DNA of 64,000 nt from contig JACKCJ010000013.1 in assembly GCA_020634075.1 (NCBI GenBank), forward strand, positions 3,298 through 67,297, given 5' to 3'. The translations under genes were made by a program, and so were the position numbers. This document shows, piece by piece, positions 48,573 through 53,401 of the stretch. Each line of letters opens with the position of its first letter. Position 1 is the stretch's first letter. The notes beneath the pieces were generated by a model. The model was not told the origin of the DNA, did not search any database, and saw only the letters and a program-made list of their open reading frames with translations. This DNA comes from Dehalococcoidia bacterium (GTDB lineage Bacteria; Chloroflexota; Dehalococcoidia; UBA2979).

Positions 48573-49175
48573 CTACCGCGCCCGTCGCGCGTCGAGGGAG
48601 ACCGGCTCGCGGTCGACGTCCTCAGTCGTGGCGACGGCCTCCTCGCGGACGGGCGGGACCTCGCCGCGGATGAGGGAGTCCATGTCGTCCTCGAACAGGC
48701 GAGCCTGCTCCGGGGCGAGGGCGAACGGTCCGGCGTTCGCCATGCGGTTCAGCTCCTCCAGCATCTCGTCCAGCGAGACGAACTGGTGGTAGACGGACGC
48801 GAAGCGGATGTAGGCGATCGGGTCGAGGCCCTTGAGGCGCGTGATCGCCATCTCGCCGACGACGCGGCTGGGGATCTCGCGACGACCTGAGCCGAGCAGG
48901 CGGCCCTCGATGTCGTCGACGATGGCCTCGATCGAGCCGGTCGGCAACGGACGCTTCTGGGCGGCGATGCGCAGGCCGGCCAGGAGCTTCTCGCGGTTGA
49001 ACTCTTCGCGGCGCCCGTCCTTCTTCACGACCATGACCACGGCACGCTGGATCTGCTCGACGGTGGTGAACCGCTCGTCGCAGCCCTCGCACTCGCGGCG
49101 GCGGCGGATGCCGGCCTCGGTCGTGCGGGAGTCGATCACTTTGCTCGTGTCATGGCCACAGAAGGGGCACTTCAT
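48573..49175 (-). CDS. nrdR: Transcriptional repressor NrdR with extended acidic C-terminal tail
   Basis: MKCPFCGH...ECEGCDERFTT forms the Zn ribbon. VVKKDGRREEFNREKL is the ATP-cone. The start is set at ATG 49175, giving 200 aa. Confidence 0.93.
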   Translation of the reverse strand: MKCPFCGHDTSKVIDSRTTEAGIRRRRECEGCDERFTTVEQIQRAVVMVVKKDGRREEFNREKLLAGLRIAAQKRPLPTGSIEAIVDDIEGRLLGSGRREIPSRVVGEMAITRLKGLDPIAYIRFASVYHQFVSLDEMLEELNRMANAGPFALAPEQARLFEDDMDSLIRGEVPPVREEAVATTEDVDREPVSLDARRAR

Positions 49176-49400
49176 CAGAGGTGTCAGCGCTCTCGTTGGG
49201 GGAGGGGCGGTGGTTGGAACCGGGGTGGGGCGCGCCGGTGGTGAGTTCGGAGTATTGGCCCCACAGCCCGTGCCCTCAACGGGAGGCATCCACATCGTTG
49301 TCGCCCAGTTGTCCCCAAGTCTGGGGATACGAGGGCACAACCTCGCGGAATCCTGTTGAGCACGGCCGTGCGAGGCGCTCGGATGGCCCGAGACAGACGA

Positions 49401-49448: not shown

Positions 49449-51212
49449 CTAGCGCGTCGGGAAGGAGCGGCGGAGGAACGTCGGCAGGTCCGCCTCGGTG
49501 AGGGCGTCGGGCGAGGTCGGGTCGGGCTTGATCTGCCCGAGCTTGATCGGCTCGATGTCCTCCTGCTGGTCCAGCACCTGCTTCATGCTGAGCTTCTTCA
49601 CGCCGCTGAAGCCCGTGGCGATGAGCGTGATCCGGACCTCGTCCTTGAGGCTGTCGTCCAGGCTCGTGCCGAAGATGATCTCCGCCTCCGGGTCCACCAC
49701 GCTCGCGATGACGCGGGCGGCGGAGTCCAGCTCGCGGAGGCCGAGGTCCCGGGGCCCCGTGACGTTGAACAGCACGCCCGTCGCGCCGGTGATGTCGACC
49801 TCGAGCAGCGGGCTCGAGATCGCCTGCCGGGCGGCGTCAGTGGCGCGGTTCTCGCCGCGGCCGGCGCCGATGGCCATGAGGGCCGGGCCGGCGTCCGACA
49901 TGATCTTGCGGACGTCCGCGAAGTCCAGGTTCACGAGGCCCGGCACCGTGATCAGCTCGCTGATGCCCTGGATGCCCTGCCGGAGCACGTCGTCCGCCAT
50001 CGAGAAGGCTTCCTCGATGGAGACCTTGTCGTCGCCGAGCTGCAGGAGCCGGTCGTTGTGGATCACGATGAGCGTGTCCACCTTGTCCTGCAGGTCGCGG
50101 ACGCCTTCCTCCGCCTGCTGGCGGCGCTTGGCGCCCTCGAACGTGAAGGGCTTCGTGACCACGCCGATGGTGAGGGCGCCCATCTCCCGGGCGACCTCTG
50201 CCACGATCGGGGCGGCGCCGGTGCCGGTGCCGCCGCCGAGGCAGGCGGTAACGAAGACCATCTCCGCGCCGGCAAGCGCCTCCGCGATCGCCTCGCGGGA
50301 TTCCTCGGCGGAGCGAGCGCCGCGCAGCGGGTCGGCGCCGGCGCCGAGGCCGCGGGTGAGCCGGTCGCCGATGCGGACGCGGATCTCAGCCTTGCAGTGC
50401 TCCAGCGCCTGCATGTCCGTGTTCATCGCCACGTACTGCACGCCCGGGAGGCGGGCGCCCAGCATGCGGTTCACGGCGTTCGTGCCGCCGCCGCCAACAC
50501 CGACCACCTTGATGGGCGGCAGACCTTCAAACTCGACCATCTGGGTACCTTCCGTTCGTGCGGGCTTCGCTGCCCGCGGGGGTGGAGGGCTGCTGGTGCC
50601 GTAGCCGCTACGCGGTGCGTGCGCGCTCGGAGCCTCCGCCTTCGGGCTCGTCTGCTCCCCCTGCGGGGCACGGGTGGTCTTCGCCTCCGCAGCGGGCGCT
50701 GCTGAGGACTTGGCTGCTGAGGACTTGGTGGCCGCTGCCGAGGCCTTGGGGGCGTCGACCTGGGCGGCTTCGAGTTCCGCGAGGATCGACTTGTAGTCCG
50801 TCTCGTATTCGGACGAGTGGCCCGGGGGCGCCGGGTCCGCCGCGAGGTCGAGCGACGCCGCAGCCTGCTCGGTCGCGCTCTGGGCCTCCGCCGACGGCAT
50901 GACGGCCGACGAGGCCGCCGTGATCACCGGCGCGAGAGGCTCCTCGGCCGGCTGCGCCGCTGCCGGCTCGTTCTCCGTCGCGTCTTCGGCCGTGCCCGTC
51001 TCGATGATCGGGGCCTGCTCGACCGCGAGGGCGGCCTGTGGGGCATCCTCGACGTCGTCCGTGGCTTCGGCGTCGTCCTCCGGCGAGGGGACGACGGACA
51101 GGCGGCGCTCATGCACCTCCTGCCGGGCCGCGGCCAGGTAGTCGAAGAGCGTGCCACCGCCCATCGGGTCTCCGCCCTCGTTGGGGCGGTGTGACCGTTC
51201 CTGCTCGTTCAT
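49449..51212 (-). CDS. ftsZ: Cell division GTPase FtsZ, long form with ~224-aa N-terminal low-complexity extension (canonical core starts at ATG 50540)
   Basis: The core carries [15 protein letters not shown] and [10 protein letters not shown], and the C-terminal peptide is DLPTFLRR. The ORF is open to ATG 51212, which has GGGAAGGTGAGGTG upstream, and the extension has coding-like third-position GC bias. The canonical ATG 50540 has GGAAGG 7 nt upstream. The gene call is secure, but the true N terminus is uncertain. Confidence 0.9.
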
Positions 51213-51264
51213 CGCACCTCACCTTCCCGGCGCTTGCGGCATCGCCGAGCGCTCATTCGGGTGG

Positions 51265-52503
51265 TCATTGGGGAAGGATGACCCGCATCAAATGCGCCAC
51301 TTTCTTGAAGATCCCGCCCAGTGCCGGTGCGGCGACCGGCGTGGAACGGAACATGATTTCCTGCTCCTTCAGGGCCCAGCGCAGGAGCCCCACGGATGTC
51401 GCGTAGGCGGGGTCATGGAGCAGGTCCGACAGCCCCGCCAGGTGCTGAGGACGGCCCACGCGAGCGGGCAGCCCCATCACCTCTTCGGCCAGTAGATCGA
51501 TGCCCGGGACGGCGGAGGCGCCGCCGGACAGCACGATGCCCGCGGAGAGCACCTCGGGGTCGGCCCCGCGGCGGATCTCAGCCAGCACCAGTTCGAACAA
51601 CTCTTCCGTCCGCGCCTGGAGGACCTGCGCGAGCAGCCGCCGTGGCATCTGCTTCGAGCCCTCCGAGCCGAACGCCTCCACCTCGACTTCTTCGTCCTCC
51701 GCGACCATCGAGGGGATGACGTGTCCGTACTTCCGCTTCGCCTGCTCGGCGGCCGGCTGCGGGACCCGCAGCGCCACCACCAGGTCGCGCGTCATGTGGA
51801 CGCCGCCGATGGGCAGCACGGCGGTGTGCACCACCGCGCCGTCCACGAACACCGCCACGTCCGTCGTCCCGCCGCCGATGTCGACGATGACGACGCCCTG
51901 CTGCATCTCCTCGCGGGAGAGCACGGCTTCAGCCGACGCCAGCGGCTCGAGGATGAGCGACTCGACGCGGACGCCGGCGCCCTCCACGCACTGCATGAGG
52001 TTGTGCATCGCCGAGGACGAGGAGGTGACGACGTGCGTCTCCACGTCCAGCCGTGAGCCGAACATGCCGCTCGGGTCGATGACGTGGTCCTGGCCGTCCA
52101 CGACGTAGTACCGCGGCACCACGTGGATGACCTCGCGGTTCGTCGGGACGTTCACGATGCGGGCGCTTTCGAGGGCGCGCGCGACGTCGTCATCGGTGAT
52201 CGGGTGGCGCGGGTCGCCGATGGCCACGATGCCCCTCGAGTTCATCGAGGAGACGTGGGGGCCGGCGATGCCGACATGGGCGGAGAGGATCCGCGTCCCC
52301 GAGGCGCGTTCAGCGCGCTCCACGGACGAGGCGATCGCCTCGATGCCCGCCTGGATGTTGTCCACCATCCCGCGGGCGAGGCCCGCGGACGGTCCGACCC
52401 CGACACCGAGGATCCGGAGATCCTGGTGCTGGTCCACCTCGGCGACGATCGTGCAGATCTTCGTCGTCCCAACATCGATAGCGGCGATGCTGTGATTGGC
52501 CAT
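51265..52503 (-). CDS. ftsA: Cell division protein FtsA
   Basis: The actin-fold motifs AIDVGTTKICTIV and VVIVDIGGGTTDVAVF are present, along with a C-terminal amphipathic helix (GGIFKKVAHLMRVIL). The start is set at ATG 52503. Confidence 0.92.
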   Translation of the reverse strand: MANHSIAAIDVGTTKICTIVAEVDQHQDLRILGVGVGPSAGLARGMVDNIQAGIEAIASSVERAERASGTRILSAHVGIAGPHVSSMNSRGIVAIGDPRHPITDDDVARALESARIVNVPTNREVIHVVPRYYVVDGQDHVIDPSGMFGSRLDVETHVVTSSSSAMHNLMQCVEGAGVRVESLILEPLASAEAVLSREEMQQGVVIVDIGGGTTDVAVFVDGAVVHTAVLPIGGVHMTRDLVVALRVPQPAAEQAKRKYGHVIPSMVAEDEEVEVEAFGSEGSKQMPRRLLAQVLQARTEELFELVLAEIRRGADPEVLSAGIVLSGGASAVPGIDLLAEEVMGLPARVGRPQHLAGLSDLLHDPAYATSVGLLRWALKEQEIMFRSTPVAAPALGGIFKKVAHLMRVILPQ

Positions 52504-52519
52504 CAGCACACGTCCTTCG

Positions 52520-53401
52520 TCATCGCAGCACCACGTTCCGACCGAAGCGGAGGTCAACCTCCGCGACCTGGGGAGAGCCGGTCGCTTCGCGCTCGCTGAG
52601 CTGACGGAGCACCTGCTCGAAGGCCTCAACCTTGAACTCGTAGTTGGACGAGTCGCCAAACACCGCGTCGGGGCCGTCCTGGGCGATGACCGTGAGGCCA
52701 CGGTCACGCTGGAACACCCACGCCGTCGGCGTGAGCCCCGCTTCCTGGAAGACGCGGTCCTCGATGAGCCGTGCGACGAGGTGGACGGTGTCGGGGTCGG
52801 CGCCCTTCCCGTCCTCCAGGTCACGCGGCGAAGCGAGATCGATGATGGTGGGAGCGTCCTCGGGCGCCGGGCGGGACGCGCGGAGGACGTTGCCGTCCGC
52901 GTCGATCACCTGCACGCGGCCGGCCGTCTGCCAGTAGCCCCAGGCCTGGTGCTCCTCGATGGTCACGTGCACCGAGTTGGGCCACGCGCGCTCGACGGTC
53001 ACGGACTTCACCGCCGGGAGGAGGGCGATCTCCTGCTCGGCCTTCGTGGTGTCCAGCGTGAGCATGGACTCGCCGCCGAGCTGGCTCACCGCCGCGACCT
53101 GGCGCGCGCCGACGACCTGGGCGCCGCTGACGTCGATGTTCATCACGCGCAGCGAGTCGCCGGTGAGCAGCCACGCCGCCCCGTAGATGACGCTCGACGC
53201 GGCCACGAGGCCGCCGAGGGCGACGCCGATGCGACGCCACGGCACGTGGAACTCCCGCGGCGGCTTCGGTCGCTCCGCGCGGGCGAGGGTGTACTGGCGC
53301 TGCGGAGCGCGCGAGGACATCGCGCGGCCGCTGACGCCGCGCGGGTTGTAGCGGCGCTGGCGGCGCCCGGGCAGGCGGAGGTTCCCGAACGGGTTACGCA
53401 T
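52520..53401 (-). CDS. ftsQ: Cell division protein FtsQ/DivIB (POTRA)
   Basis: It has a basic cytoplasmic N terminus, one TM helix, and a POTRA-like LRVMNIDVSGAQVV...MLTLD block. Its position between ddl and ftsA supports the call. Confidence 0.8.
   Translation of the reverse strand: MRNPFGNLRLPGRRQRRYNPRGVSGRAMSSRAPQRQYTLARAERPKPPREFHVPWRRIGVALGGLVAASSVIYGAAWLLTGDSLRVMNIDVSGAQVVGARQVAAVSQLGGESMLTLDTTKAEQEIALLPAVKSVTVERAWPNSVHVTIEEHQAWGYWQTAGRVQVIDADGNVLRASRPAPEDAPTIIDLASPRDLEDGKGADPDTVHLVARLIEDRVFQEAGLTPTAWVFQRDRGLTVIAQDGPDAVFGDSSNYEFKVEAFEQVLRQLSEREATGSPQVAEVDLRFGRNVVLR

Follow-up and report, generated by a model that had tools for sequence, protein, structure and literature searches.

Almost all known partners of FtsZ, the best-studied protein of the bacterial cytoskeleton, dock on its C-terminal peptide, a short element with the consensus [D/E]-[I/L]-P-x-F-[L/M]-[R/K] in which the Pro is conserved. 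The N-terminus of FtsZ is usually regarded as a few irrelevant residues. In-frame dual starts that yield two isoforms from one gene are known for IF2 (alpha/beta), ClpB (93/79) and CheA (long/short). Across taxa, FtsZ N-terminal peptides range from a few to ~200 amino acids (aa) and are largely unstudied (PMC6175996), with a few of them shown to be functional (PMC6175996, PMC12583498). The peptide of Anabaena sp. PCC 7120, a heterocyst-forming cyanobacterium (Nostocales), is ~50-60 aa long and is needed for normal polymer shape, for the interaction with SepF and for division (PMC6175996). In Odinarchaeota, FtsZ1 carries an N-terminal amphipathic membrane-binding helix, and some Mycoplasma FtsZs bind the membrane via their N- or C-terminus (PMC12583498). 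With engineered N-terminal membrane anchors (mts-FtsZ), FtsZ vortices have inverted chirality and the membrane bends in the opposite direction (PMC5979038). Here we analyze an ftsZ gene in a 64,000-nucleotide stretch of DNA from a Dehalococcoidia bacterium (contig JACKCJ010000013.1 of assembly GCA_020634075.1; the whole stretch is hereafter called the window). Its reading frame continues for 224 codons upstream of the canonical start, and comparison with related genomes indicates that the N-terminal extension encoded there is very probably translated and functional. On balance, we favor a dual-start ftsZ in which a long isoform, carrying a disordered arm with two motifs, co-polymerizes with a short one. 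Such a gene is not categorically new, as an FtsZ with a functional N-terminal peptide and an in-frame dual-start gene both have precedents.

Coding evidence for the N-terminal extension

The original prediction had the FtsZ frame staying open for 224 codons above the canonical ATG at 50540, and we found the open reading frame (ORF) to be uninterrupted over 587 aa, with Met225 at 50540-50538. Of the two isoform lengths it gave, 587 aa stands for the long form, whereas the short form has 363 aa by count rather than 364. Residues 225-587 are textbook FtsZ, with matches to PF00091 (Tubulin) over residues 234-392 at 150.8 bits (cut-off 33), to PF12327 (FtsZ_C) over residues 442-535 at 117 bits (cut-off 27) and to TIGR00065 over residues 231-553 at 412.3 bits (cut-off 295.2). 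The signature loops GGGTGTG (residues 326-332) and NLDFAD (the T7 loop, residues 428-433) are present and invariant in 48 species. The C-terminal peptide DLPTFLRR, thought from the outset to be intact, was found at residues 575-582, and its L576, P577, F579, L580 and R581 are likewise invariant in these species.

The evidence that the extension is coding comes mainly from related genomes. A genome scan, limited to one genome per species, yielded 79 loci, ~60 of them from Chloroflexota and mostly labelled Dehalococcoidia. Counted back from the G-box, the FtsZ frame of all these ~60 species stays free of stops for 140-780 codons, against only 24-65 open codons in the Spirochaete and Bacteroidales loci of the same scan. 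The ftsA stop and the G-box are 416-1109 nucleotides (nt) apart in the ~60 related loci, with zero stops in the FtsZ frame between them. For two relatives of 30-31% GC (L054 and L058), the probability of an open run of this kind occurring without a stop is 2.6e-6 and 8e-7, respectively. The ratio of nonsynonymous to synonymous substitution rates (dN/dS) of the extension was 0.19-0.55 in 14 of 15 pairs, the remaining, near-identical pair giving 0.89; in the same pairwise comparison the core gave 0.004-0.13. Between the window and its closest relatives, the value for the extension was 0.32-0.41. Judged from these alignments, the extension is under purifying selection and conserved across the clade. 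The view that it is coding was thus borne out: the ~60 relatives showed sequence conservation and neither stops nor frameshifts, and a codon signal was present in the window.

Within the window itself, we scored codon usage as log-odds trained on five neighbouring genes. The extension scored +0.30 bits per codon in the FtsZ frame, compared with 0.58-0.84 for the training neighbours, and the five other frames across it gave -0.23 to -1.23 bits per codon with 2-3 stops each. Coding potential is thus positive in the FtsZ frame only, and the antisense ORFs over the extension are Arg-rich junk, as had been described. The GC content by codon position was 0.74/0.59/0.86 in the extension and 0.71/0.45/0.96 in the core. 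Along the extension, third-position GC is 0.87-0.93 for residues 1-150 and goes down to 0.67-0.80 for residues 150-225. The neighbour-like third-position bias that had been read from the codons is therefore present, but it is weaker than in the core and fades late in the extension. The window has 70% GC and contains spurious ORFs of 368 and 692 aa near ftsZ; an open frame of 224 codons is therefore not significant alone, and its significance rests, as we read these sequences, on the comparative evidence.

The ORFs of two neighbouring genes, ftsA (519 aa, 51265-52824, minus strand) and nrdR (255 aa, 48573-49340, minus strand), overrun their real starts upstream, which lie at 52503 (MANHSIAAIDVG) and 49175 (MKCPFCGH), respectively. 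The overrun parts are Arg/Pro-rich junk, that of ftsA overlapping ftsQ. These overruns show how easily false N-terminal extensions arise in high-GC DNA, and the ftsZ case contrasts with them.

Candidate starts, a predicted disordered arm and a proposed role

For the long form, the ATG at 51212 was confirmed to sit 52 nt after the ftsA stop, behind the Shine-Dalgarno (SD)-like sequence GGGAAGGTGAGGTG (Table 1). The MNEQER N-terminus that it specifies is shared by eight related sequences (L001-L004, L015, L033, P0002 and P0009), so initiation is most likely at Met1 and not at Met17. The latter is missing in several relatives (L002, L004, L015 and L033), and on this ground is probably not the main start. 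We surveyed the upstream start in 52 related loci with ftsA sequence and a locatable motif 1 (described below). It lies 25-122 nt past the ftsA stop, mostly with an SD-like site whose duplex free energy (dG) is about -6 to -12; 13 of these loci have instead an ATGA, in one case a GTGA, that overlaps the ftsA stop. An ATGA overlap is a classic arrangement for translational coupling.

The internal start was compared in 61 sequences, namely 60 related loci and the window. An in-frame ATG is found 13-22 codons ahead of the G-box in 58 of them, and the other three have a GTG at -16. An SD duplex with a dG of -6 kcal/mol or lower precedes 84% of the internal starts, compared with 14% of 8,644 other in-frame positions in the extensions (Mann-Whitney p = 1e-25). 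From -13 to -8, 84-100% of the bases are purines. Of the 61 sequences, 37 have GGAGG or AGGAG before the start and 60 have an SD core of 4 nt or more. This purine block is encoded through 44 distinct six-residue contexts (T-E-G, Q-E, G-G, K-E, R-R, E-V, M-E and others). Since the nucleotides are kept while the amino acids drift, the constraint on the block appears to act at the nucleotide level, and such conservation is, as far as an alignment can tell, the signature of a working ribosome-binding site.

Two in-frame starts, each with a ribosome-binding site and both conserved in relatives, were thus found in this gene. The simplest reading of the conserved internal start and SD is that long and short FtsZ are both made, which we consider likely from the sequences. 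Accurate in the original prediction were the GGAAGG 7 nt before the canonical ATG (50553-50548) and the possibility that both forms coexist, with which the presence of a start codon in 61 of 61 sequences and the SD enrichment given above agree. A scan for sigma-70-like promoters that might give a short transcript returned 0 sites, the sigma-70 consensus being uninformative for this phylum. The last 30 residues of the extension (50541-50630 in the window) are net basic in 34 of 48 species, with a mean charge of +2.0. The purine-rich ribosome-binding region may bring this about incidentally, or the residues may form a functional basic patch beside the core.

The extension itself is 127-341 aa long (median 198) in 48 species and acidic in 46 of them, with a net charge of -21 in the window. 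It contains two conserved motifs (Table 1). L22, F23, D24, Y25 and L26 of motif 1 and S134 and E135 of motif 2 are invariant in 46 species, where L121, D122 and L123 of motif 2 reach 90% conservation or more. Synonymous codons vary at the invariant residues (CTC, CTG, CTA, TTG and TTA for Leu, four for Ser, three to four for Ala and Arg), which argues for selection on the protein and not on an RNA element. Low-GC relatives retain FFDLF or LFDLF, and L054 also has a compressed EPPEFD. Between the motifs lies a spacer of 17-101 aa, and a tail of 37-227 aa joins motif 2 to the core; outside the motifs the sequence is variable and rich in Ala, Pro, Glu, Ser and Thr.

An AlphaFold2 (AF2) model built on a 32-sequence alignment had a mean predicted local distance difference test score (pLDDT) of 52.9 and is usable for coarse calls of disorder and helix only. 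It gave a pLDDT below 50 for residues 1-26, 37-137 and 153-229, and weak helices at residues 22-38, over motif 1, and at 135-152. Outside these motif helices the extension is predicted to be intrinsically disordered. Composition and model thus agree with the earlier description of a disordered extension rich in Ala, Glu, Pro, Ser and Thr. Of the two ordered patches that went with this description, the first is the conserved motif 1. The second starts in the SEYE end of motif 2, and the remainder of it is conserved within a subclade only; both are weak helices in the model. Segments of the form xSLAEILADLEALxV, similar to the predicted second helix, occur in L005-L008. In another group of relatives (L038-L041, L045-L047, L050 and L056), imperfect tandem repeats of the AEAEAP or EAPAEA type form the tail. 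This sublineage includes sponge-associated metagenome-assembled genomes (MAGs), and as the copy number of the repeats differs between species, tether length appears to evolve by repeat expansion and contraction.

We propose that ribosomes starting at ATG 51212 would make the long FtsZ, with a coupling to ftsA via ATGA in some relatives, and that those starting at the internal SD and ATG 50540 would make the canonical FtsZ. The first 224 residues of the long form would then be an acidic, disordered arm of variable length that presents motifs 1 and 2. Because the two isoforms share one GTPase core, they would be expected to co-polymerize, and filaments would then be studded with flexible N-terminal tethers contributed by the long one. 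Candidates for the partner or partners that these tethers would recruit are a divisome protein and an adjacent FtsZ filament, with the membrane a less likely one. The arm would leave the filament on the face opposite the C-terminal FtsA-binding peptide, and the ratio of long to short form would set the density of tethers. Where the start is ATGA-coupled, output of the long form may track that of FtsA. FtsA is much less abundant than FtsZ in model bacteria, and so the long form may be a minor species.

As for the motifs, we lean slightly toward their being protein-binding sites, because Asp24, Tyr25, Ser134 and Glu135 are strictly invariant, because motif 1 combines a low hydrophobic moment with a net charge of 0 to -2, and because FtsA with its amphipathic C-terminus already provides an anchor. 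One lead from the sequences is that motif 1 could be a second, divergent docking peptide for the partner class of the C-terminal peptide. More tentatively, and with rather less confidence than in the two-isoform gene itself, the Z-ring of this whole class-level lineage of Chloroflexota may be built from two isoforms, with the motifs of a minority long form docking a lineage-specific partner that serves as a second membrane or cell-wall anchor or as a cross-linker. The suggestion that the extension is an atypical regulatory or tethering module is supported to the extent that a disordered two-motif arm is consistent with a putative tether; a caveat on 'atypical' is that the literature mentions FtsZ N-terminal peptides of up to ~200 aa.

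Table 1 Features of the ftsZ locus, with positions in the window
Feature	Position	Strand	Remarks
ftsA, directly upstream of ftsZ	51265..52503	-	Pfam FtsA and SHS2_FTSA; real start MANHSIAAIDVG; stop 51265-51267
Long ftsZ ORF, 587 aa and stop	49449..51212	-	extension, GTPase core, short C-terminal linker and C-terminal peptide; uninterrupted
N-terminal extension, 224 codons	50541..51212	-	coding score, dN/dS, AF2 disorder
Shine-Dalgarno-like GGGAAGGTGAGGTG	51215..51228	-	anti-SD duplex dG -8.1
Putative long-form start codon, Met1 (MNEQER...)	51210..51212	-	52 nt past ftsA stop
Alternative start, Met17	51162..51164	-	SD dG -7.1; start of ENA call P0007, 571 aa
Motif 1, [T/P]LFDYL[A/E/Q]AAR, residues 21-30	51123..51152	-	conservation
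Motif 2, LDL[S/T]AEPPPPGxxSE[F/Y][D/E], residues 121-137	50802..50852	-	conservation
Predicted helix, residues 135-152	50757..50810	-	AF2; 10-residue blocks with mean pLDDT 49-63
Internal SD-like GGAAGG	50548..50553	-	7 nt before canonical ATG; within codons T-E-G; dG -7.0
Internal canonical start, Met225	50538..50540	-	yields the 363-aa short FtsZ annotated by NCBI
C-terminal peptide DLPTFLRR, residues 575-582	49467..49490	-	normal partner-docking site

Competing explanations

Several points weigh against a dual-start ftsZ with a functional arm. The two isoforms are predictions from sequence, all relatives are uncultured MAGs (from groundwater, sponge-symbiont and lake samples), and the genome scan reaches close FtsZ relatives only, which sets the limits of the known clade. 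The codon score is clear for residues 1-165 and about zero for 166-224, where the frame is open in all species. The internal SDs are weak in both 30%-GC relatives (dG -5.6 and -0.9), and something other than initiation could, in principle, explain why the internal Met and its SD are conserved. NCBI carries the short form here and in 8 of the 10 relatives tested (361-365 aa). The AF2 model, with its low confidence, contains no confident docking of a motif or contact with the core.

The annotation and the fading codon signal, together with the frequency of long spurious ORFs at 70% GC, would suit a frame that is not translated at all, being a chance product of high GC or a long 5' leader to a gene that makes the 363-aa protein only. 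This we regard as very improbable and, by the comparative sequence data, effectively refuted. The frame is uninterrupted throughout the species compared, two with 30% GC among them (probability about 1e-6 each), the motifs are conserved as amino acids despite synonymous changes, with dN/dS below 1, and all other frames have stops and negative coding scores. In 13 loci, moreover, the upstream start overlaps ftsA, and a non-coding gap of 416-1109 nt within a division cluster would itself be unusual. More improbable still is that a small protein has a gene of its own between ftsA and ftsZ and the fusion is an assembly artefact, or that the long product is a precursor that is cleaved. Stand-alone calls of 78-171 aa do carry the motifs (P0010-P0014), and L080 is called as a 171-aa gene followed by a 372-aa ftsZ. 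The break in L080, however, is a frameshift in the tandem repeat AAAAGPAELAEA; the repeat goes on in the FtsZ frame, and the tail of the gene as called is out of frame and rich in Arg. The other short matches are contig-end fragments or similarly frameshifted, and the fusion is uninterrupted in about 60 independent assemblies. We therefore rejected P0010-P0014, L080 and L081 as stand-alone extension genes, as they are frameshifted or truncated near contig ends. The frameshift in the repeat of L080 (L080:3001-3660), on a 2.1-Mb contig, is either an assembly error or real, in the latter case possibly at a slippage-prone site.

Two further explanations accept the extension and differ in what it does. 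The gene may make the long form only, so that every FtsZ molecule carries the arm, with the internal ATG and purine block an ancestral relic or retained on account of the protein or the mRNA; evidence for the upstream start is good, no sequence feature forces use of the internal site, Prodigal-type callers often choose the long form, and the weak internal SDs of the two low-GC relatives fit as well. Among lineages with cores of only 57-89% identity and GC contents from 30% to 76%, however, a relic would be expected to have eroded, whereas the internal start codon is retained in every sequence and its SD nucleotides are kept across 44 residue contexts. Strong SD-like sequences within ORFs are, in addition, usually avoided. 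We thus judge production of the long form only to be unlikely. A little less probable again is that motif 1 is a membrane-targeting amphipathic helix through which the long isoform anchors filaments directly to the membrane. Its helix over residues 22-38 in the AF2 model, the hydrophobic i, i+1, i+3 and i+4 positions of L-F-x-Y-L-x-x-A and the flanking lysines of the low-GC KNFFDLFKSN are in line with such a role, which has precedents among N-terminal membrane-binding helices of FtsZ (PMC12583498). The hydrophobic moment of motif 1 is, however, 0.15-0.26 and its charge 0 to -2, compared with +2 to +4 in the MinD, FtsA, MinE and SepF sequences compared, and its flanks are acidic. The low-GC variant is closer to the membrane-targeting type, with a moment of 0.40 and a charge of +1. 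The strict invariance of Asp24 and Tyr25 suits specific protein recognition better than lipid binding, and an extra anchor is unneeded where the amphipathic C-terminal helix of FtsA and the FtsA-binding peptide are both present. Motif 1 has neither the high moment nor the net positive charge of a typical membrane-targeting helix, and this reading of it was downgraded; direct membrane binding by the long form, by whatever route, is doubtful.

Locus, annotation and known systems

In the window, ftsZ follows ftsA in a division cluster with the gene order ddl-ftsQ-ftsA-ftsZ. Directly downstream of ftsZ lies nrdR (48573-49175, minus strand), and the order ddl-ftsQ-ftsA-ftsZ-nrdR recurs in L080, where nrdR (L080:5009-5548) is followed by a ribonucleotide reductase gene. 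The conserved adjacency of ftsZ and nrdR may reflect a link between division and the supply of deoxyribonucleoside triphosphates. The C-terminal linker of this FtsZ (49449-49610, residues ~537-571) is short, at ~35-40 residues compared with 224 in the N-terminal arm, so most of the disordered length of the protein is N-terminal, the reverse of model FtsZs. Four MAGs from the scan (L010, L013, L079 and L030) have 66-70% GC and are titled 'Dehalococcoides mccartyi' or 'Thermoflexus hugenholtzii JAD2'. These taxonomic labels look wrong, given a GC content of about 47-49% in D. mccartyi.

Residues 1-224 had no Pfam match (none in the protein outside residues 234-535), matched 0 NCBIfam families and gave 0 PDB profile matches at E <= 10. 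Searches with the extension alone, with a 46-species profile and against 1.84 billion representatives returned 2-12 matches, all of them fragments of the same FtsZ extension; the module thus appears specific to FtsZ. No other protein context for it was found among 5.8 billion (8 matches) or 1.84 billion (12 matches) proteins, and fusion partners therefore give no clue to its function. The 363-aa form is an exact match to 'cell division protein FtsZ [Dehalococcoidia bacterium]' in NCBI (MCA9847082.1 and others). The 587-aa form was absent from every protein collection checked, the nearest being the 571-aa ENA call from Met17. For the relatives tested, forms of 533-601 aa are found among the ENA, JGI and Logan calls that cluster with their short forms. 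Prior descriptions of the FtsZ extension were not found in the literature searched, which leaves out most subscription journals. The extension is found across the clade and is under selection, the main annotation pipeline misses it, and as far as we can tell it is undescribed. In these genomes the NCBI pipeline treats some 0.4-1.1 kb of conserved coding DNA as 'intergenic', so surveys that start from annotated proteins will miss the extension.

Over deep divergence, a large, environmentally abundant and barely cultured lineage has thus kept both the ordinary start and a long N-terminal arm whose two motifs are near-invariant. Were both isoforms made, FtsZ polymers of mixed isoforms would occur naturally, with points of attachment on each face. 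In a two-isoform Z-ring, attachment on both filament faces would come with a built-in regulator of ring architecture, the isoform ratio.

How does this arm compare with the systems described? Like the N-terminal peptide of Anabaena, it is a clade-specific conserved sequence ahead of the FtsZ GTPase core. Unlike that peptide, which is ~50-60 aa long and conserved throughout, the arm is 127-341 aa long, mostly non-conserved and disordered, with two short motifs; a dual start is predicted here and none is reported for Anabaena, the two N-termini being compared by description only. Detectable homology between them is unlikely, as profile searches with the extension returned only fragments of Chloroflexota FtsZ. 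In its design, the arm resembles the C-terminal linker and peptide of FtsZ itself, the standard docking module for FtsA, ZipA and SepF, namely a variable disordered spacer bearing a short conserved docking peptide. Judged from the sequences, L-F-D-Y-L of motif 1 shares the h-x-x-[F/Y]-L spacing of L-P-T-F-L in the C-terminal peptide. Beyond this L-x-x-aromatic-L spacing they have in common only an Arg further downstream; motif 1 lacks the Pro, and its Asp-Tyr is invariant. The C-terminal module, which is also intact and normal here, has one motif; the arm has two, at the opposite terminus and hence on the opposite side of the filament.

The N-terminal elements of Odinarchaeota and Mycoplasma FtsZs and of mts-FtsZ offer a further parallel, in that the arm would likewise attach the filament from the face opposite the C-terminus. 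The Odinarchaeota and Mycoplasma helices lie at the extreme N-terminus, near the core, and are cationic and amphipathic. Motif 1, in contrast, is neutral to acidic, has a low moment and is separated from the core by ~100-300 disordered residues. With regard to its starts, a search of the literature, with most subscription journals outside its coverage, turned up no description of dual-start isoforms for FtsZ. The gene resembles those of IF2, ClpB and CheA, in which one ORF has two in-frame starts, each with a ribosome-binding site, and the short product lacks an N-terminal module and can join the long one. Unlike in those three cases, the two FtsZ products here are predictions, made from an arrangement of starts of the same kind.

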